This document shows, in pieces, positions 2,481 to 36,532 of a stretch of DNA of 36,731 nucleotides; the stretch's first letter is position 1, and every line of letters starts with the position of its first letter. The translations under genes were made by a program, and so were the position numbers. The DNA comes from Candidatus Hydrothermales bacterium. GTDB taxonomy: Bacteria; Hydrothermota; Hydrothermia; Hydrothermales; JAJRUZ01. The notes under the pieces were generated by a model. It had not been told where the DNA came from. It did not search any database and was given only the letters and a program-made list of their open reading frames with translations. Location: the NCBI GenBank assembly GCA_039630575.1, contig JBCNUW010000019.1, positions 1-36,731 of the forward strand. Reading direction: 5' to 3'.

Positions 2481-2798
2481 TAATCACTAAATACACAATT
2501 TACTTGACATAAAAGTTAAAAAATAAAACTAAAATTAATTACTAACCCATCTGAAAGTTACTCTAAACTTTTTTAAAAAAAAGTTATTCAGAAAACCATC
2601 ATTAAAATACGTTAATAAATAACTTCGTAAACTTTCACACAAGATGTTTTAAATTTAATTTATATAAACTTTAGAAAAAAATATTAGGAATCTACTTTTT
2701 AAGTCAATTAAACAAAATTTAAGAATTTAATTAAAAAGATAGATAGATTTCTTTCTTTTACATTATAATTACATAAAAAATAACTAAAAGGAGGATAT

Positions 2799-3434
2799 AT
2801 GAAGGGTATCTTTATCTCTATCTTAATTCAGATTAATGTAGACTTAATCATAAAAGAATGTGAAAAGAAATGGGAAAGTGTAAACACCTATACATGTATC
2901 TATGAGAGTTATCAGAAAAAAGATAATGAGGAGGATAAAAGAAAATACTTCGTTGAATTTAAAAAACCCCTTTGGATAAGACTCAAGGTTCTGGAGGGGA
3001 AAAATAAAAACAGTGAAGTCCTTTATAACCCTGAAAAAAATATCGTTAGAGGAAGAAAAAGCGGAATGCTAAGAGGAATTGTTCTAACATTAAACCCAGA
3101 TGATAAAAGAGTAATTTCCCTAAGAGGTTTTAGAGTATATCACGCAGGCATAGGAGAAATATATAGAAGAATGTTTGAGTATTATAAAAAAGGCTATCCA
3201 TCAAAAATTTTAGGAACATTCAAAGAAAAAGGCTTTGAAGGTTATAAGATTGAATTTGAAGTTAAAGAACCTTCCGAATTTTTCGGATGTGCAAGGGAAG
3301 TTTTTTGGATAAGGAATGATTTTATTCCTTACAAATGTGAACAATGGGATGAAAAAGGTGAGTATGTACTTTACTCAGAATTTTTAGAAGTCAACTTAAA
3401 TGTTAAAATAGAAGAAGAAAGGTTTAATTTGTGA
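2799..3434 (+). CDS. Exported LolA-like / DUF1571-type protein
   Basis: AAGGAGGA RBS, short hydrophobic N-terminus, then F-x-KP-x-x-IRL and a C-terminal 'EV-NLN-x-I-x-x-x-x-F' pattern typical of LolA-fold proteins. Confidence 0.6.
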   Translation: MKGIFISILIQINVDLIIKECEKKWESVNTYTCIYESYQKKDNEEDKRKYFVEFKKPLWIRLKVLEGKNKNSEVLYNPEKNIVRGRKSGMLRGIVLTLNPDDKRVISLRGFRVYHAGIGEIYRRMFEYYKKGYPSKILGTFKEKGFEGYKIEFEVKEPSEFFGCAREVFWIRNDFIPYKCEQWDEKGEYVLYSEFLEVNLNVKIEEERFNL

Positions 3435-26968: not shown

Positions 26969-28579
26969 ATGATTTTTCTTTTTCTTTTCTCTCAAGTTAT
27001 GACCTCTTCTTTTCTTGAAAACAGAGGAATAAGGTTTCACCTTGGTATTGACATTTCAACTTATAAAAAAATTGGTATACCTATAGAAAGCCCTTTTAAA
27101 GGTAAGATAATAAAAATAGTTGATAAATGGAAAGGATATGGAAAGGCTGTTTATATAGAAAATGATTTAAAAATCATTTATTTATATGCTCACTTAGATG
27201 AATTTAGAAAGGATTTAGAAGAATATGTATATTATGAGAAAAAGAGAATTAAAAAAAATGAAATAGATATAGACCTAAATATCGAAATAAATGAAAAAGA
27301 CACAATAGGTTATTCAGGAAATACCTCAACAGTAGTGCCCCATATTCACCTTGAAACAAGAAAAAAGTTCAGTAAAGCTCTCAATCCTCTTTTTTTTCAT
27401 GATATAATAGATACAATAAAACCTGTTATTAAAAAAATAAAAATTTACCCACTTGGGAAATCTTTGATTTATTCAAGTTTTTTACCTATTGAAATAAATA
27501 GACCTTTTCCTGAAACTTTAAATATAACTTCTGATTTCTTTTTATGGATCTCAGCCTATGACATTCAAGAAAAAAATTTAGACAAAATAAGTATTTACTC
27601 TTTGAGAGTTTTTTTAGGAGATTCACTTATTTGTGAATTGAAATATGACAGTATAGACATTAATAAAAACTTTCTTGCAAGAGCTCTTTATACAGAAGCA
27701 CAAGGTACCTTTTCTGAAAGCTTTATTCATCCCATTTTAACAGATGAAGCTTTCTGGAGTGGCAGCACATTTATAAATTTAGAAAATAGTTTAAGTCCCA
27801 TTAAAATATTTGTATATGATTTCAAAGGTAATGTTGACTCAGCAAAAATTTTCATTAAGAAAGAAATAGATAGGCATAAAAATATAAAAAAGAAAAAGGG
27901 AATATATTTTGTTTTTGATGGTCTTGTTATAGTTGACACACTTGAAAGAAAGATTTTGTTAAAACCTGGGCAATTAGGAAAAATATTTGATTATACATAC
28001 ATATTCCCCTTACCTGAAAAAGATTACTTTGTAAAACTAAAAAATTTTGATCTATGGATACCAAAAAACTTTCAATTTTTCCCCTACCCTATATTTTTAA
28101 AGGAAATTGAAGATACTTTACTTGTATACTGTGCTGAAATTCTTTTTAAAAACCCTTTAAGAGTAAAAGTAAAGAACAAAAAAAATAAAGAAGTAATTTT
28201 AAAATCATACGGAAATAAAAACTATAAATTTTTAACCTCAGATTCAATTTTTGAAAGTTATTCATGGGGCAAATTTTTCAAAACTGTTGATACATTTAAA
28301 CCTGTAATTATAGGAAAAGAAATTCACTATATTAACCCTTCAGGATTTGAAATTGAATTTATAGTAAAAGATAACAGTTCAGTAAAAAATATAGAATTTT
28401 ATATTGATGAAGAATGGGAACCTGTAAGCTACAACCCCTTAACTAACATTGCAAGAATTAGAGTTTTTAGAAAAATTAAGAAAAGAGAAAGTAATTTTAG
28501 ATTGATCGCAGAAGATTATTCGGGAAACAACTGTGAGATGGTAGGCAAATTAATTAGCAAAAAAATAAATTTGAAGTAA
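26969..28579 (+). CDS. M23 family metallopeptidase with long C-terminal beta-rich region
   Basis: HxxxD (HLGID), GYG..VYI, YAHL, IGYSGNT, HxH (PHIHLE), NPL. Confidence 0.87.
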   Translation: MIFLFLFSQVMTSSFLENRGIRFHLGIDISTYKKIGIPIESPFKGKIIKIVDKWKGYGKAVYIENDLKIIYLYAHLDEFRKDLEEYVYYEKKRIKKNEIDIDLNIEINEKDTIGYSGNTSTVVPHIHLETRKKFSKALNPLFFHDIIDTIKPVIKKIKIYPLGKSLIYSSFLPIEINRPFPETLNITSDFFLWISAYDIQEKNLDKISIYSLRVFLGDSLICELKYDSIDINKNFLARALYTEAQGTFSESFIHPILTDEAFWSGSTFINLENSLSPIKIFVYDFKGNVDSAKIFIKKEIDRHKNIKKKKGIYFVFDGLVIVDTLERKILLKPGQLGKIFDYTYIFPLPEKDYFVKLKNFDLWIPKNFQFFPYPIFLKEIEDTLLVYCAEILFKNPLRVKVKNKKNKEVILKSYGNKNYKFLTSDSIFESYSWGKFFKTVDTFKPVIIGKEIHYINPSGFEIEFIVKDNSSVKNIEFYIDEEWEPVSYNPLTNIARIRVFRKIKKRESNFRLIAEDYSGNNCEMVGKLISKKINLK

Positions 28580-30035: not shown

Positions 30036-33000
30036 CTAATCAAACTGAACACCGTATATCTTTGAAATGCCTCTATCCATAGTTACTCCGTAAACCTTGC
30101 CCTTTATTTCCATTGTCCTCTTGTTATGAGTAATAAGTAAAAGTTGTGATTTTTCTGATAATTTCTCTATGTAACTGATTAGTCTCAAAGTATTTGAGTC
30201 ATCCAAAGATGCATCAATTTCATCCAATGCGAAAAATGGAGAGGGTGATATCTTTGCAAGAGCAAAAAGAAAAGTTAAAGCAAATAAACTTCTTTCTCCT
30301 CCAGAAAGTAATAAAACTGATCTTATTTTTTTTCCATTCGGTGAAACATCAATTAAAAGTTCAGATTCAAGAAGATTTTTTTCATCTGATGGCTTTATTC
30401 TAACATCTCCGCCAAGTAAAATTGTAGAAATATTTTTTAATTCTTCTTTTAAAAGATCCAAAAATTCTAAGTATTTAGCCTTTGCTTCTTTTTCCATTAA
30501 AGATAATGACTCTTTTAATTTAATAACACTTTCCTCAAGATCTCTATAGGCCTTTATTTTCTCATAATATTCTTTTTCTAAAATTTTAAACTCCTTCTCA
30601 GCTAACAGATTAACATCATGCATCTTATCAATCTCTTTTTCAATTTCAGCAATTTCCTCTTTCAATTTCTTTACAGAAATATTTTCAGGTATATACTCAA
30701 GACCAGCTGGATAAAACTCGAGACCCTTTTCTATTTCGTTTATATCCTGTTTTAACTTTAATATTCTTTCCAACATTCTTTCAAGGTTTTTTTCTTTAGC
30801 ATTTAATAAGTTCCTCCTCTCCTCTATATCTTTCTCAATCTCTTTTAACTTAGACTCAATCCCAGATGTACTTTCTTCTAAATCATTAAGTATCTTTTCA
30901 AGATTTTTTCTTTTAATTTCAAAATCATCTATGTCACCCTCAACTTTAAGAATTTTTTCTTTTATTTCTCTAAACTCCTTTTCTCTTTCCAATAAATTAT
31001 TCTCATAAAATTTAATCTTTTCTTTTAAACTCTCATATTCCTTTAATTTTTCTTCCGCAACTCTAAGCATTTCAAATTCTCTCAACTTTTCTTTCTCAAT
31101 TTTTTTTAATCCTTTTAAATCCTCTTCTTTTTTTGCTATTTCAAGAGAAATCATTTCTCTTTCTTTTTCTAATTCCCTTAAACTCGTAATGTTTTTCTCG
31201 TAATCATCTTTAAAGCTACTTAGTTTTAAATCTATCAGATTTAGTTCAGACTTTATCTTTTCATAAATTGAATTTAATTTGTAAACCTTTTCTCTAATCA
31301 TTTCTCTATCCTTAAGAATTTCACCAAACTCCTTTTTTAGTACCTCAAGTTCTTTTTTAATTGAATCTAAATCCTTTCTCTTTTCAAAAGTTATCTTTTC
31401 TAACTCTATTATCTTTTTATTGTATTCAATTTTATCGAAAAGAACTTTTCTAAGAATACCATCTTTTGTTATTAAGAATCCATCCTTTGAGACAGCATAG
31501 TCACACTCATTTTTTCTCCAAGCATTTAAAGCTTCTATTTTACTCTCAAAAATTTTTAATCCACTAAATCTTTCTCTGATAAGATTTCCTATCCCCTCGG
31601 TATCTTTAAAACCTGGAATTAAGGTTTCCTTATATTTTTCTCTCTCTATAATAACCTTTCCTCCTTTTTCAAGAAATCTTTGAATTTTGTCGTTAAATTC
31701 TTTGTTGTTTAGCACTTTCGCTTCAAGAATATCCTCAATTACAAAGAAATACTCTTCATTTTTAGAAAAATCCAAATAACTATATAAAAACTTAAGCTCC
31801 GGAATCATATCTTCATCAATTTTTAAAGCAGATTTTAGTTTAATTAATTCTCCCTCTAATTTTTTTGTTTCATTCTCTAATTTAAATAATGTATCTCTTT
31901 TATTCCTTTCTTTCTCTAAAAGGTAATCTGATTTATTCTCTAATTCATTGAGTAAACTCTGAAGATTCTCTTTTTCAAATTTAAGTTCATTTATTTCTCT
32001 CTCTTTTGATTTTTTAACATTTTCAATTTCTTTTATGTTGTTTTCCAAGTCTTTATTTTTACTTAAGAGATTGGAAATTTTAAAATCTACCTCTTCTTGT
32101 CTTAATTTATACCTTACAAGATGTTTTTCACTTTCTTTAATACCATTTGAAATTTCTTCTAATTCTTTTCTAATTTCTTCGATTTTATCCTTTTTGATAT
32201 TTAAAAACGGTTCTTTCTCTTTGAGATTTTCTCTTAAATTTTCTAATTTCTTTTTATTCTCCTCTAACAATGAGCTTAGGAAGGTTTCTCTGTCTTTAAG
32301 AGTTGATAGTTCACCGTATTTACGGTTCAATTCTGATAAAAGTTCTTCTTTTTGAGTTAAAAGTGGATTTTTTTTTCTTCTCAAAAATTCTAATTCTTTT
32401 AAAAGATTTTCCCTTTCGGAGGCTATTCTTTGAATATTTTCTTTTAAAACATGTATTTCTTCTTCAAGATTTTTGAAAAATCTTTCGCTTTCTTTTAGTT
32501 CTTTTTCTTTTTTACTTTTATCTCTGATTAGCTTCGAATATTCAGCTTTTAAAATTAAGCTTCTTTTTTCTTTTAAAATTTCGTTTAAAATTCTATAATT
32601 TTGAGCTTTTTTCATTTCTTCCTCAAGTTTTTTAATTCTTTCTTTTTTATCTTTCATAACAATTTCAAAAGCTTTTAAGTCTCTTTCAGTTTTCTCTAAC
32701 CTCTTCTCTATAATTTTCTTTTTATGGTCAAAATCGTAAAGTTCGCAGGCTTCAAAAATCATTTCTTTAATTCTTTCTTTTGGTTTTCTTATAAGCTCCT
32801 CTACATCTTCCCATTGGAATTGAGTATAACTTTTTTTTCCAAAAAGTTTTTCTATCTCTTCTTTATAATTTCTCTCTGAAACAGTATAATCATTTATAAG
32901 GTATTCCTGGGAATTATCTCTATAAACTCTTCTTGTTAACTTTTTATTGTTATTTTCATTTTGTATTAAAATCGAGACCTCAGCAAAAGGTGCTGCTTTT

Positions 33001-33212
33001 TTTTCCTTTGTCCCCCAGAAAATAAGTTCTTTAGGTTCTTTAACTCTTAATTTATTCAATCTATTTTCACCAAGAACAAACCTTACTGCTTCAAAAATAT
33101 TTGATTTACCACAGCCGTTTGGACCAATTACAAGAGAAATTCTATCAGATAGAAATATTTCAGCTCTTTCAAATGATTTAAAACCATTTAATATTATACT
33201 TTTTATCTTCAT
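30036..33212 (-). CDS. smc: SMC-family chromosome segregation ATPase (divergent hinge)
   Basis: GFKSF, Walker A GPNGCGKSN, long coiled coils around a central globular region, VNL.A..E, LSGGE signature, LDEIDASLD, ITH. Confidence 0.85.
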   Translation of the reverse strand: MKIKSIILNGFKSFERAEIFLSDRISLVIGPNGCGKSNIFEAVRFVLGENRLNKLRVKEPKELIFWGTKEKKAAPFAEVSILIQNENNNKKLTRRVYRDNSQEYLINDYTVSERNYKEEIEKLFGKKSYTQFQWEDVEELIRKPKERIKEMIFEACELYDFDHKKKIIEKRLEKTERDLKAFEIVMKDKKERIKKLEEEMKKAQNYRILNEILKEKRSLILKAEYSKLIRDKSKKEKELKESERFFKNLEEEIHVLKENIQRIASERENLLKELEFLRRKKNPLLTQKEELLSELNRKYGELSTLKDRETFLSSLLEENKKKLENLRENLKEKEPFLNIKKDKIEEIRKELEEISNGIKESEKHLVRYKLRQEEVDFKISNLLSKNKDLENNIKEIENVKKSKEREINELKFEKENLQSLLNELENKSDYLLEKERNKRDTLFKLENETKKLEGELIKLKSALKIDEDMIPELKFLYSYLDFSKNEEYFFVIEDILEAKVLNNKEFNDKIQRFLEKGGKVIIEREKYKETLIPGFKDTEGIGNLIRERFSGLKIFESKIEALNAWRKNECDYAVSKDGFLITKDGILRKVLFDKIEYNKKIIELEKITFEKRKDLDSIKKELEVLKKEFGEILKDREMIREKVYKLNSIYEKIKSELNLIDLKLSSFKDDYEKNITSLRELEKEREMISLEIAKKEEDLKGLKKIEKEKLREFEMLRVAEEKLKEYESLKEKIKFYENNLLEREKEFREIKEKILKVEGDIDDFEIKRKNLEKILNDLEESTSGIESKLKEIEKDIEERRNLLNAKEKNLERMLERILKLKQDINEIEKGLEFYPAGLEYIPENISVKKLKEEIAEIEKEIDKMHDVNLLAEKEFKILEKEYYEKIKAYRDLEESVIKLKESLSLMEKEAKAKYLEFLDLLKEELKNISTILLGGDVRIKPSDEKNLLESELLIDVSPNGKKIRSVLLLSGGERSLFALTFLFALAKISPSPFFALDEIDASLDDSNTLRLISYIEKLSEKSQLLLITHNKRTMEIKGKVYGVTMDRGISKIYGVQFD

Positions 33213-33221
33213 ATTTAAAAC

Positions 33222-33803
33222 CTAAGGTTTAAACCAAAATTCACCTTTTAAACTTTTTGTTCTTTTTATTATCTCGACCATATTTTTTGCTATTCTGTCA
33301 CACTCAAATAAAGTATCAGTATTTTTATCGATAGATCCTACAGCATAGGTAATAGAATAAGGAGGAATTATTGCTCCCATGAAATTTAAGGGTATGATTA
33401 TTGAAGAAGCTGTGCTTATGGCACCATCCTCTTCACAGGAAACAACACAAGAAACCACTTTACCAGCAATAAGTGGTTCTAAATTATCCAAAGCTGTTAA
33501 TAGATCGATAAAATTTTTCATAAGCCCCGATGGACCAAACCAGTATACAGGGGTTCCAAAAACAAGTCCATCTGCCTTAAGAATCTTTTCATAAACTCGG
33601 GGTAAAACTTCCTTGAAAACTTGTGGATTACAAAGTGATTTATCCTTCGAATAACAGCCTACGCAGTATGGAACGTTCTGTTCGATAAGGAAAATTATAT
33701 CTGTTTCCGCACCTAATTCTTTAGCTCTTTCAAGAACAGTATTTAAAAGAATTGTTACTTTTCCCTCTTTTATTGGAGATCCTGAAATTCCAAGTATTAG
33801 CAT
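33222..33803 (-). CDS. Flavodoxin-family / iron-sulfur flavoprotein-like FMN reductase
   Basis: GISGSP...G, CVGC...C, ADG.VFGTPVY, MKNFID, GKV. Confidence 0.88.
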   Translation of the reverse strand: MLILGISGSPIKEGKVTILLNTVLERAKELGAETDIIFLIEQNVPYCVGCYSKDKSLCNPQVFKEVLPRVYEKILKADGLVFGTPVYWFGPSGLMKNFIDLLTALDNLEPLIAGKVVSCVVSCEEDGAISTASSIIIPLNFMGAIIPPYSITYAVGSIDKNTDTLFECDRIAKNMVEIIKRTKSLKGEFWFKP

Positions 33804-33808
33804 AAATC

Positions 33809-33838
33809 ATTTTAAGATTTTAAAAATCCTACTTTCAA
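33809..33838 (-). promoter_or_regulatory. Leaderless-type promoter for the flavoprotein-smc unit
   Basis: Minus strand TTGAAA (33838-33833), 18 bp, TAAAAT (33814-33809), 5 nt before ATG 33803. Confidence 0.55.
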
Positions 33839-33890
33839 ATTTTTTTTTAAACAAATTTTATTTATAATTATTGTATAAAAGGAGAAAGAA

Positions 33891-35222
33891 ATGGAAGAAA
33901 AAACAATATGCTTCAATTGTGGAAAATATATAGGGGCAAAAGATAGATGTCCCTATTGTGGAGAAGAACAACTAAAACCTATTGGAATTGAATTTTTAAG
34001 GTGGTCTAGTCTATTAATAGCTATTGCAGGTGTTATCTTTTTATTTATTTCCGCAAGAACAGAAGATGCTCCTTTAGTAAAAGTGGTAGATTTAAAACCA
34101 ACTATGAACTTTGCAAAGGTAAAAATGCAAGGGATAGTAGAATCTTCTCCTTATTACGATGAAGAAAAAGGAGGGTACCTTTCCTTCTGGCTTAATGACG
34201 GTACAGGAAATATTAAAGTTAGAGCCTTTAAGGATGTAGCAAAAGAAATTATTGAAAAAAAAATATACCCATCAATAGGGGATTCAGTTTTTTTAAAAGG
34301 AACACTCTATGCAAAAGAGAACTTTCTATTAACAATTGAAAAAAGTGAAGATTTAAAAATCAAGATTCCAAATCATCTTAATGTTAAAATTAAGGAAATA
34401 ACTGATACATTAATAGGAAAGAGAGTTGAAACTGAAGGTACTGTATATTCTGTAAATGAGTATAAAAATAAATCTGTTGGCATTAGAATAGGTGATATGG
34501 GGAATTTTATAACTGTTTTTATACCTCATTATTATAAAGAAAAAGAAAAAATTATTGGTCTTGAGAGGGGAACAAAAATTAAAGTTAAAGGTGCTGTTTA
34601 TGTTTATAAGGATAACCTTGAGATAATACCTCATTTTGTAGATGAAATTGTAGTTGTGGGAAAAGAAGAAATAAAAATTAGTAAAAAGAGAGAAACTACA
34701 AGGATAAAAGGTGAAGTTTTACAAGGAACAACTTTTAAAAAGAGTATAAAATTAAAAATAAAAACAGAAGAAGGAATTGAGGAGATACTTTTATGGAAAT
34801 CTCTTCTTGAAAAAAAGTATAAAAATGAAATAGTTAAAATTATCACAGGATCTATTATAGAATTTGAAGTCTATGAAAGAGAGTATAAAGGTAAAAAGGA
34901 AAAAAATGCGAGAAGTCTAAAGGTGATATCATATCCTGAAAAGGCTACAAAAATTTCTGAAGTATTAAATAGAAATATTGGGGAATTTTTAAAAACCGAG
35001 GGAAAGGTTGAAAATATCACGGAGTTTAAAAAGGGAACAAGAGTAATCATAAAAGATGAAACAGGTGAACTTATAGTTTGGATATGGAAAGACATTTGGG
35101 ATAAAGTTAAAGGAACATTTGGTGAAGGAGATAATATAAAAGTAATAGGTGAATTAAAGGAATTTAAAGGTAAAAAGGAGATTATTCCAAGAATTTATTA
35201 TGACATTATCCCATTAAAATGA
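33891..35222 (+). CDS. Membrane-anchored protein with N-terminal Zn ribbon and four tandem OB folds
   Basis: CFNC-x9-CPYC, one TM helix, then repeats with DGTG.I.V / DETG.L.V, G..V.V.G and YK..LEIIP / FKGKKEIIP motifs; AAGGAG RBS. Confidence 0.78.
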   Translation: MEEKTICFNCGKYIGAKDRCPYCGEEQLKPIGIEFLRWSSLLIAIAGVIFLFISARTEDAPLVKVVDLKPTMNFAKVKMQGIVESSPYYDEEKGGYLSFWLNDGTGNIKVRAFKDVAKEIIEKKIYPSIGDSVFLKGTLYAKENFLLTIEKSEDLKIKIPNHLNVKIKEITDTLIGKRVETEGTVYSVNEYKNKSVGIRIGDMGNFITVFIPHYYKEKEKIIGLERGTKIKVKGAVYVYKDNLEIIPHFVDEIVVVGKEEIKISKKRETTRIKGEVLQGTTFKKSIKLKIKTEEGIEEILLWKSLLEKKYKNEIVKIITGSIIEFEVYEREYKGKKEKNARSLKVISYPEKATKISEVLNRNIGEFLKTEGKVENITEFKKGTRVIIKDETGELIVWIWKDIWDKVKGTFGEGDNIKVIGELKEFKGKKEIIPRIYYDIIPLK

Positions 35223-36532
35223 ACATACTTCTTTGTCTCCTTGTAACCCTTTTAGGGACAACTGTAGGCATTCTCTTTTCGTGGATACCTGCACTTCATA
35301 TTTACAACATTCTGGCATTAATAATTTTTATTGAAAGTGAATTTTATATTTTACCTTTAAACCTTTTGCCTTACTTTTTCACTGGTGCTATTGTTGGATA
35401 TTCTTTTACAGGGATCATACCTGCTGTATATTTTTCAACTAATGATGATTCTACGCTTTTTTACTTATTGCCAGCGCAAAAATTTCTTCTATATGGAAGA
35501 GCCCATGAAGCTGTTTTGCTTTCCACAATTGGATCTGTAGGTGCAGCTTTTATAGTTTTGATTTCAGCAGCCTATTTACCTTTTATTTTACCTCCTTTAA
35601 GGGATTTACTAACTCCTCACATGGCATGGATAATTGCTTCAGTAGGAGCTTTTATGATATTGTCTGAATGGCCCAGGACTACTGATAGGCCCAAAACACC
35701 CCTTGGAAGGTTAAAAGAAGCTTGGGGTTCACTAATCATAGGGATTTTAGTTTTTACTTTATCAGGTATTCTTGGGTATATAGTTTTAAGAGGTGGGCTG
35801 ATGAAACCTGAGACATCCTTTCAGAATCTTATGCCACTTTTCCTTGGTTTATTTGCTGTTCCATGGTTAACAATTAATGTAATATCAAAACCTATAATAC
35901 CAATTCAGAATACTGAAAATAAGGTTGTAACGAATTATACAAGAATTTTACGAGGAATTTTTGCTGGATCCTTAGGTGGTGGAATTGCTGCGTTTTTTCC
36001 TGTTATAACAGGTGGTGTAGGTGCTTTTCTTGCTGGTCATGCTACTGCACAAAGAGGGGATGATATCTTTTTAATTGGACAAGGAGCAAATAGATTTTTG
36101 TATTATGTTGGTGGTTTTTTATTATTTTTTGTTCCTTTTTTGCATATAAGGAGAGGGGGAGCAGCCTGGATGCTCAACATACTTTACACTCCTCAGACTT
36201 TTTCAGAATATTTTTTGATAATTGGATCTTTACTTATAAGTTCTTTTATAGCTCTTTTTTTTACTTTAAAAATATCAATTGTAATAGCAAAAAATATACA
36301 TAGAGTTCCTTATAAGAATCTTTCAATAACAATTTTAATTTTTGTAATATTTCTTACTTTTATAGTGACGGGTTTTGAAGGTCTTCTTATTTTAATTGTT
36401 TCAAGTGCTGTAGGGTTATTGCCGCCTCTTTTTGGAACAAGGAGATTGAATTGTTTGGGTGCTCTTATTTTACCACTTACAATTCAAATGAGTTCTTTTG
36501 CTCAAAGTTTTGCTAAGTTAATGGGTTTTTAA
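35219..36532 (+). CDS. TctA-like (tripartite tricarboxylate transporter permease family, archaeal-type) membrane protein
   Basis: Many hydrophobic segments; G..(F)SWIP.LH, LLP..K.L..GR..EAV.LS..GS, P.F.GLF, G.LP...G.RR..C.G motifs; ATGA overlap with the upstream gene. Confidence 0.8.
   Translation: MNILLCLLVTLLGTTVGILFSWIPALHIYNILALIIFIESEFYILPLNLLPYFFTGAIVGYSFTGIIPAVYFSTNDDSTLFYLLPAQKFLLYGRAHEAVLLSTIGSVGAAFIVLISAAYLPFILPPLRDLLTPHMAWIIASVGAFMILSEWPRTTDRPKTPLGRLKEAWGSLIIGILVFTLSGILGYIVLRGGLMKPETSFQNLMPLFLGLFAVPWLTINVISKPIIPIQNTENKVVTNYTRILRGIFAGSLGGGIAAFFPVITGGVGAFLAGHATAQRGDDIFLIGQGANRFLYYVGGFLLFFVPFLHIRRGGAAWMLNILYTPQTFSEYFLIIGSLLISSFIALFFTLKISIVIAKNIHRVPYKNLSITILIFVIFLTFIVTGFEGLLILIVSSAVGLLPPLFGTRRLNCLGALILPLTIQMSSFAQSFAKLMGF

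Follow-up and report, generated by a model that had tools for sequence, protein, structure and literature searches.

A candidate DNA-import module of scattered bacteria: an OB-fold array gene paired with an archaeal-type TctA-like permease and accompanied by a YdjM-like gene

What might a TctA-family permease carry when its overlapping neighbour encodes a membrane-anchored array of oligonucleotide/oligosaccharide-binding (OB) folds? This question is raised by a gene pair at positions 33891-36532 of a 36,731-nt stretch of Candidatus Hydrothermales DNA (the window), which is contig C11 of a 1.89-Mb source genome (G000) that is 94.7% complete. A preliminary description had presented the pair as a candidate nucleic-acid capture and uptake system. 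Its parts are as follows.

33891..35222, plus strand: gene 1 (P0001), 443 aa, with a Zn-ribbon-like Cys4 motif, a transmembrane (TM) helix and four OB folds (Pfam PF01336/PF13742, AlphaFold2 and fold matches)
33909..33959, plus strand: C7xxC10-x9-C20xxC23 ribbon, probably cytoplasmic, conserved in a 132-row alignment, with metal binding as a prediction
33987..34061, plus strand: single TM helix, residues about 33-57, with a likely N-in/C-out orientation (AlphaFold2 model, K+R bias)
34074..35213, plus strand: four tandem OB folds, residues about 62-441, likely extracytoplasmic
35219..36532, plus strand: gene 2 (P0002), 437 aa, an archaeal-type TctA-like (PF01970; COG1784-like) polytopic membrane protein

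We propose tentatively, a little short of calling it probable, that this pair and a YdjM-like gene form a three-part machine for DNA capture, import and processing that runs parallel to ComEC. With much the same reserve, we suggest that the module is related to, and works like, a gene pair required for transformation in methanogens. It is no canonical tripartite tricarboxylate transporter (TTT). The anatomy, linkage and clade behind this proposal were observed, its biochemical steps are all deduced, and its archaeal anchor was matched by description.

Relatives of the permease were gathered by an alignment scan of GTDB genomes; a single-protein scan of genome contigs had returned none. A check for RNA holders likewise listed none. 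The alignment scan confirmed 381 permease relatives, and the locus counts given here refer to the best 80 of these 381. The closest named homologues of P0001 and P0002 (87% and 92% identity, respectively) belong to candidate division WOR-3/Ca. Hydrothermales, and the record titles of the 80 loci name WOR-3, Anaerolineae and other Chloroflexota, Kiritimatiellia/Verrucomicrobia, Spirochaetes, Planctomycetia and one Archaeoglobales. An OB homologue was found upstream of the permease in 64 loci, within 150 nt in 54 and further away in 10. It was not seen in the remaining 16, 8 of which have less than 1.5 kb of upstream DNA, and 14 of these 16 genomes gave an OB match elsewhere (one as a single-domain match only). 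The neighbourhood check showed that the OB/permease pairing is conserved over several phyla. The ATGA overlap of the two genes at 35219-35222, already reported in the preliminary description, was confirmed in the open reading frames (ORFs), and a 4-nt overlap was present at all 6 family-level junctions listed.

The module was present in 9 of 201 genomes of the own-phylum sample, one of them a fragment, and two further own-phylum carriers hold all three genes. In a Chloroflexota-type phylum sample around an Anaerolineae genome (seed included), 4 of 151 genomes had the permease, and the OB array (3 genomes) and the YdjM-like gene (3 genomes) occurred solely among these 4 carriers. A distant version, separate from the module, was found on two non-mobilizable cyanobacterial plasmids (L205:2445-4939 and L206:3228-7406; Pseudanabaena galeata and Cylindrospermopsis curvispora), where a TM-OB-OB gene lies upstream of an orphan TctA-like gene. 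The permease of the Pseudanabaena plasmid is far more distant (23% identity) and has the OB gene directly upstream, and the Cylindrospermopsis plasmid carries a nuclease-related gene downstream of its TctA-like gene. Because these plasmid pairs share it, the OB/permease association recurs in two distant branches.

A precedent for such a pair exists in archaea. Methanococcus maripaludis JJ no longer underwent natural transformation after in-frame deletion of either MMJJ_13020 or MMJJ_13030, and both defects were complemented; the former protein is described as an OB fold with one TM helix and the latter as TctA-like with 11 TM helices (PMC10133366, Fonseca et al. 2023). The Methanoculleus thermophilus homologue SAMN04488571_104187 was also required, and the archaeal counterparts are needed for the uptake of whole plasmids (PMC10133366). 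The same paper proposes, as a hypothesis, that DNA is transported by the TctA-like protein, and it regards the archaeal DNA transporter as unidentified. Methanogens depend genetically for DNA uptake on a pair that fits the same description, which supports the tie to nucleic-acid uptake that had been claimed for the pair in the window. The two systems share consecutive genes (by locus tag in the methanogen) for an OB protein with a single TM helix and an orphan TctA-like protein, with no TctB/TctC, and the homology of P0002 to Methanoculleus TctA-like proteins extends over its full length. They differ in that the host here is a bacterium with ComEC and the permease falls in a distinct, long-stemmed clade. 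The Zn ribbon and the 2-7 OB repeats seen here are not mentioned for MMJJ_13020 in the accessible part of the paper, and the YdjM-like third gene, conserved here, is absent from its screen table.

P0002 matched PF01970 (TctA) at 139.7 bits in Pfam and was the sole PF01970 match in the source genome; NCBIfam holds no family for it. Neither TctB (PF07331) nor TctC (PF03401) was matched in this 94.7%-complete genome, and neither is among the recurrent neighbours of the 80 loci. The statement that gene 2 has no tctB or tctC nearby was therefore confirmed genome-wide. In a quick maximum-likelihood tree of 90 rows (8 canonical, 57 archaeal, 24 module clade, 1 cyanobacterial), which carried a long-branch warning and whose archaeal rows came from one phylum only, the 8 canonical TctA rows formed one side of a very long branch (SH-aLRT 100). 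The module rows formed a clade on the archaeal side (SH-aLRT 100, stem of 1.8 changes per column), separated from canonical TctA by about 5.4 changes per column. The archaeal rows, all from that one phylum, formed one side of the tree with a support of only 73, and the module clade may be either nested inside the archaeal family or sister to it. P0002 could be aligned along its full length to a TctA-like protein of Methanoculleus bourgensis (24% identity over 432 columns, E 1e-18; hhalign 99.3%), and its best BLAST E against an Azospirillum TctA from a tctCBA operon was 0.16, which is not significant. The permease profile scored archaeal PF01970 proteins at 72-199 bits and gave no full-length match on 3 haloarchaeal canonical loci. 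In the 24 module and 57 archaeal sequences, 29 alignment positions are at least 80% identical in both sets, and H27, R312 and R408 of the permease are among the positions common to archaeal-type proteins. By these comparisons, the permease is closer to archaeal PF01970 proteins than to canonical TctA and groups with the archaeal stand-alone type, as the preliminary description had supposed.

The archaeal background of this family was sampled in one phylum, where PF01970 occurs in 140 of 151 genomes, mostly as one copy. Among 40 archaeal loci with about 4 kb of flanking DNA, an OB match was found in 3 and a module-type YdjM match in 0, and a full-length OB-array match was returned by 1 of 151 archaeal genomes, the seed. 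Two single observations concern archaea. The Archaeoglobales genome G061 (contigs C300 and C185) contains a module-clade permease and an OB array on a 2.7-kb contig, plus an ordinary archaeal copy, which may reflect transfer or mis-binning. In archaeal locus L185, a 144-aa gene with a TM helix and a single OB fold (2615-3046, minus strand) is found downstream of the TctA-like gene at a distance of about 1 kb, with both genes on one strand.

The family name invites a conventional explanation, namely a TTT-type carboxylate permease working without TctB/TctC, beside an OB gene that is unrelated or serves as a substitute receptor. PF01970 membership favours it, as do weak fold rows for the CitS and DASS carriers and the suggestion that arCOG04469/COG1784 proteins, which are mostly stand-alone, are possibly carboxylate transporters (PMC5898192, Makarova et al. 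2015). With no tctB/tctC in the source genome, a position far from canonical TctA in tree and BLAST, and recurrent partners that are OB, YdjM and PLD genes rather than genes of carboxylate metabolism, we regard it as highly improbable. The module shares PF01970 membership and the lack of tctB/tctC with arCOG04469/COG1784 (DUF112), but archaeal members are mostly stand-alone, whereas members of the module clade come mainly from bacteria and are coupled to OB and YdjM genes. To canonical TctABC it is linked by distant homology via PF01970 only, and it differs in lacking TctB/TctC and in giving no significant BLAST match. The preliminary description had the OB array replace TctC as receptor; because the permease clade is far from the TctC-using TctA proteins, this idea survives as an analogy and nothing more.

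The permease model was of good quality (predicted local distance difference test (pLDDT) 85.5, predicted template modelling score (pTM) 0.86). Its best fold match was barley YS1, a small-solute carrier of the OPT family (Z 11.5-11.7, root-mean-square deviation 5.8-7.0, 273-287 residues aligned), which is within the noise range of helical proteins; the next structure row had a Z of 6.5-7.8. Foldseek gave no match for the model at E 0.001, and the permease profile matched none of the PDB sequences.

The gene 1 protein was assessed by alignment and by an AlphaFold2 model (mean pLDDT 86.6). The CxxC-x9-CxxC ribbon is present as had been reported; the Cys4 motif was found in 132 of 162 homologues scanned, and in an alignment of 132 homologues, C20 and C23 are invariant and C7 and C10 are conserved in at least 90%. 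The one hydrophobic helix and the four OB-like repeats were also recovered, the helix at residues about 33-57 and the domains at about 62-156, 163-255, 268-347 and 351-441. The two motifs ascribed to the repeats both exist, but each is in only 2 of the 4: DxTG in OB1 and OB4, and Y/F-K-x3-E-I-I-P in OB2 and OB4. The top fold matches of the array were HIN-200, CST, Teb1 and RPA, which are nucleic-acid-binding OB arrays, and the top PDB sequence match was archaeal RPA32 (E 1e-4); by Pfam, model, fold and PDB matches, gene 1 encodes tandem OB folds, as RPA/CST-type arrays have. The soluble part is basic (isoelectric point 9.3), and conserved aromatics lie at positions 74, 99, 113 and 239.

K+R residues are more frequent before the TM helix than after it in 105 of 133 homologues and equal in 13. 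In the 80 loci, 54 ORFs have the Zn-ribbon form with 2-7 OB folds each (four in 32), and 20 OB ORFs have no Zn ribbon; 11 of these 20 start with a lipoprotein-type signal by our own pattern, and most others are cut by contig ends. Because of the K+R bias and the lipoprotein-type paralogues, the OB folds are placed outside the cytoplasm and the ribbon inside, so that the outward-facing array of the preliminary description is upheld as the most likely, extracytoplasmic arrangement. The lipoprotein form, seen at L005, L006, L010, L012, L024, L028, L040, L046, L068, L071 and L072, has the signal, a Pro/Thr linker and two OB folds. It represents a second OB paralogue within Anaerolineae-type modules and stands beside the permease in 11 of the 80 loci.

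The pair is accompanied by a third gene, which lies outside the window in the source genome.

contig C1, 11370-12377, minus strand: predicted YdjM-like membrane metallohydrolase gene (Pfam, neighbourhood)

Its product matched YdjM (PF04307) at 65.1 bits (cut-off 29) and consists of a YdjM domain with a soluble insert, with H6, D43, D46, H188, H193, H232 and D236 invariant over 18 rows. We take the H6/D46 spacing to be like that of P1 nuclease. The YdjM-type site is probably on the N-terminal side and cytoplasmic, judging from hydropathy, and the YdjM-like profile gave no significant match to PDB sequences. A YdjM-like gene lies in the flank of the permease in 36 of the 80 loci and was found in 65 of 70 carrier genomes searched, all drafts or metagenome-assembled genomes (the misses were G246, G251, G061, G062 and G427). 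In the source genome it is unlinked on C1 (also L131:7359-8366), between tgt-like and aminotransferase-like genes named by eye. In a class sample of 61 genomes, the gene was present in the 6 permease carriers and in no other genome, a co-occurrence that counts as one event because all 6 belong to one family. The pair described as a two-gene module is real, but with the YdjM-like hydrolase added the module has at least three genes. What looks like a TctA-YdjM fusion in L041 extends across a run of N and was therefore dismissed as an artefact of scaffolding. An LTD-DUF11-PLD exoenzyme with HxK(x)4D motifs occurs in 10 of the 80 loci, and its PLD part had no match in the source genome. In one sub-lineage, a gene with LysM and lamin-tail domains lies directly downstream of the permease (L033:7136-7897, L068:7386-8153 and L071:7320-8069).

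These hydrolases admit two further explanations. PLD domains can act on lipids, and OB folds could bind carbohydrate, so that the module might move or remodel lipid or glycan in the envelope, its archaeal relatives affecting transformation only indirectly. YdjM, aligned with phospholipase C, Het-C and S1-P1 nuclease domains, has indeed been argued to be a phospholipase (PMC8557891), and the near universality of the archaeal permease in the sampled phylum (140/151) has a housekeeping look. However, the OB folds match RPA32, CST and HIN types and not carbohydrate-binding ones, the archaeal genes can be deleted (PMC10133366), and the bacterial spread is sparse (9/201, 4/151) over lineages with unlike envelopes; we consider such an envelope role distinctly unlikely. 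The other explanation is nutrient scavenging, in which the OB array would concentrate extracellular DNA or RNA on the cell surface, nucleases would cut it and the permease would be a secondary carrier of short oligonucleotides or nucleotides, with no genetic information entering. The exoenzyme of 10/80 loci, the alignment of YdjM with S1-P1 nuclease and phospholipase C domains (PMC8557891) and the weak best fold match to an OPT-family small-solute carrier would all suit it. A nucleotide carrier, however, leaves the uptake of whole plasmids by the archaeal counterparts unexplained (PMC10133366), and no nucleoside-catabolic or phosphate-regulon genes were recurrent among the neighbours of the 80 loci. 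We judge scavenging unlikely, though deserving real weight.

Physical association of the OB protein and the permease, which forms part of the proposed import machine, was approached by structure prediction. The predicted complex of the permease with gene 1 residues 1-160 scored 0.58, compared with 0.00 for the best control, with a contact agreement of at least 92% and a partner pLDDT of at least 73 in the runs. Of 157 solved complexes, 116 attained the score mark, as did 2 of 215 mismatches, and passing scores at or below 0.60 comprised only 18 solved complexes and both mismatches. The complex thus beats its controls, but at this score the model lends weak support to OB-permease binding. Memory of a solved complex is unlikely because the PDB copy holds no TctA-like sequence.

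The preliminary description had suggested a ComEC-independent route. The source genome encodes ComEC (PF03772) on contig C24 (329-1486, minus strand; 385 aa, competence core only), in which Pfam found neither a DUF4131 OB domain nor a beta-lactamase-like domain. It also has DprA, a ComEA-like protein, a ComF-like match below its cut-off and PilB/PilT-type ATPases. ComEC was present in 50 of 50 and 4 of 4 bacterial carriers tested (54/54; some genomes recur between samples), and it was not found in the Archaeoglobales carrier genome. The module is therefore not a stand-in for ComEC at the genome level. To our knowledge ComEC is near-universal in bacteria, so its presence is compatible with a parallel route, and the module fills no gap; the same coexistence in 54/54 bacterial carriers would also suit the scavenging explanation. 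We rejected the possibility that the module makes up for a shortened ComEC, as short ComEC frames are class-wide with or without the module. In the class sample, 59 of 61 genomes matched, most with frames of 370-530 aa (about 370-410 aa in this order), including 53 without the module; most Anaerolineae and Kiritimatiellia carriers have ComEC frames of about 700-900 aa.

ComEC, described as required by all competent bacteria, combines an OB fold, a channel and a beta-lactamase-like nuclease (PMC12455585). The module would share this division of labour between OB binder, membrane passage and metal-dependent hydrolase. It differs in that its channel and hydrolase come from other families, its parts are on separate genes and the YdjM-type site is probably cytoplasmic, compared with the external nuclease of ComEC. 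Two side observations concern the competence genes. The Kiritimatiellia-type genomes G220, G223, G225, G227, G230, G234, G236 and G257 have a second, divergent ComEC-like match with a frame of about 1130-1185 aa. In the source genome, two tandem PilB-type ATPases and one PilT-type ATPase (C20:6587-11664; L132) adjoin an MglA/MglB-like pair named by eye.

The setting of the pair in the window was also analysed. The ORF map and Pfam confirmed that the pair is divergent from a flavoprotein gene, and the flavoprotein and smc genes adjoin it in five relatives fetched from the family. Its GC content and third-position GC content resemble those of housekeeping genes of the source genome. A recent transfer into the source genome was ruled out by this ordinary composition and the family-shared site; because of both, the pair is regarded as a settled resident of this family. 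Two upstream elements belong to it.

33863..33868, plus strand: TATAAT, candidate -10 element without a recognisable -35 (sequence; hexamer in relatives)
33880..33884, plus strand: AGGAG, Shine-Dalgarno-like, 6 nt 5' of the ATG (sequence)

Both sequences, listed in the preliminary description as the unit's own TATAAT and ribosome-binding site, are present, but the TATAAT has no -35 partner, was absent from the list of the promoter scan and is a hexamer found 76 times in the window, whose GC content is 30%. In the five relatives, TATAAT lies 7-23 nt 5' of the start in four and is replaced by TAAAAT in the fifth; as a TATAAT-like hexamer is kept before the start in 5/5, a -10 element is plausible. 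A Shine-Dalgarno-like site comparable to AGGAG was found in only 1 of the 5. In the intergenic region at 33803-33891, a -10-like hexamer precedes the start codon of both divergent genes in the family by a few bases, often without a Shine-Dalgarno sequence, which suggests that leaders of the pair and the flavoprotein gene are short or absent in this family. Elsewhere in the window, we noted an SMC-family protein of 1058 aa (30036-33212, minus strand; the Pfam scan gave SMC_N and AAA families and no SMC hinge family), a protein of 536 aa whose M23 peptidase matches lie close to the N-terminus (26969-28579, plus strand) and a frame of at least 657 aa running off the contig (1-1971, minus strand) with an N6/N4 DNA methyltransferase domain late in the frame.

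If the three genes form a DNA-import machine, the OB array would bind a DNA strand outside the cytoplasmic membrane, the TM helix and first OB fold of the gene 1 protein would dock on the permease, and the permease would pass nucleic acid inward. The YdjM-like protein, with the His/Asp pattern of a phospholipase C/P1-nuclease-type metal site, may trim or degrade the strand at the membrane, and the Zn ribbon may be a cytoplasmic interaction site for an unspecified partner. Some Anaerolineae would add the LTD-DUF11-PLD exoenzyme and the lipoprotein OB paralogue. Several points weigh against this proposal. Oligosaccharides and proteins are also among the ligands of OB folds, and no ATPase belongs to the module. 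Binding and transport are so far hypotheses for the module and the archaeal members alike, and the nearest solved fold, weakly matched, is the small-solute carrier YS1. The permease was mostly stand-alone in the 40 archaeal loci, and because the stem of the module clade is long (1.8 changes per column), the function of the permease may have shifted. Since carriers keep ComEC and the source genome has DprA, ComEA-like, ComF-like and pilus ATPase genes, a second transformation channel would be redundant. Orthology to MMJJ_13020/MMJJ_13030 rests on the description and on congeneric Methanoculleus proteins, and in M. thermophilus the authors of PMC10133366 found nothing clearly homologous to MMJJ_13020.

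For archaea the central idea has been published before (PMC10133366); the bacterial form and the YdjM-like partner may be new. Our literature search, in which coverage of subscription papers was thin and later work of the same group may exist, found no paper on either, and the accessible parts of PMC11267900, PMC13385129 and bioRxiv 10.64898/2026.09.03.749268 contain nothing on the module. A bolder form of the proposal, which we offer as possible but doubtful, holds that scattered bacteria have a second, archaeal-type DNA-import machine unrelated to ComEC, with an outward OB array, a COG1784 permease through which the DNA passes and a membrane nuclease of the YdjM type. Such a machine would be a counterpart of ComEC by convergence, divided among separate proteins and able to travel between phyla and to plasmids. 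The long-sought archaeal DNA transporter, along with a missing partner, would then be identified.

The module links the leading candidate for the archaeal DNA transporter to a tightly co-inherited bacterial gene set. It also names a third component with candidate catalytic residues, and its soluble OB arrays are usable in binding assays. How cells that lack ComEC import DNA thereby becomes a directly testable question. If only fragments are imported, the module would still be an undescribed nucleic-acid scavenging system.

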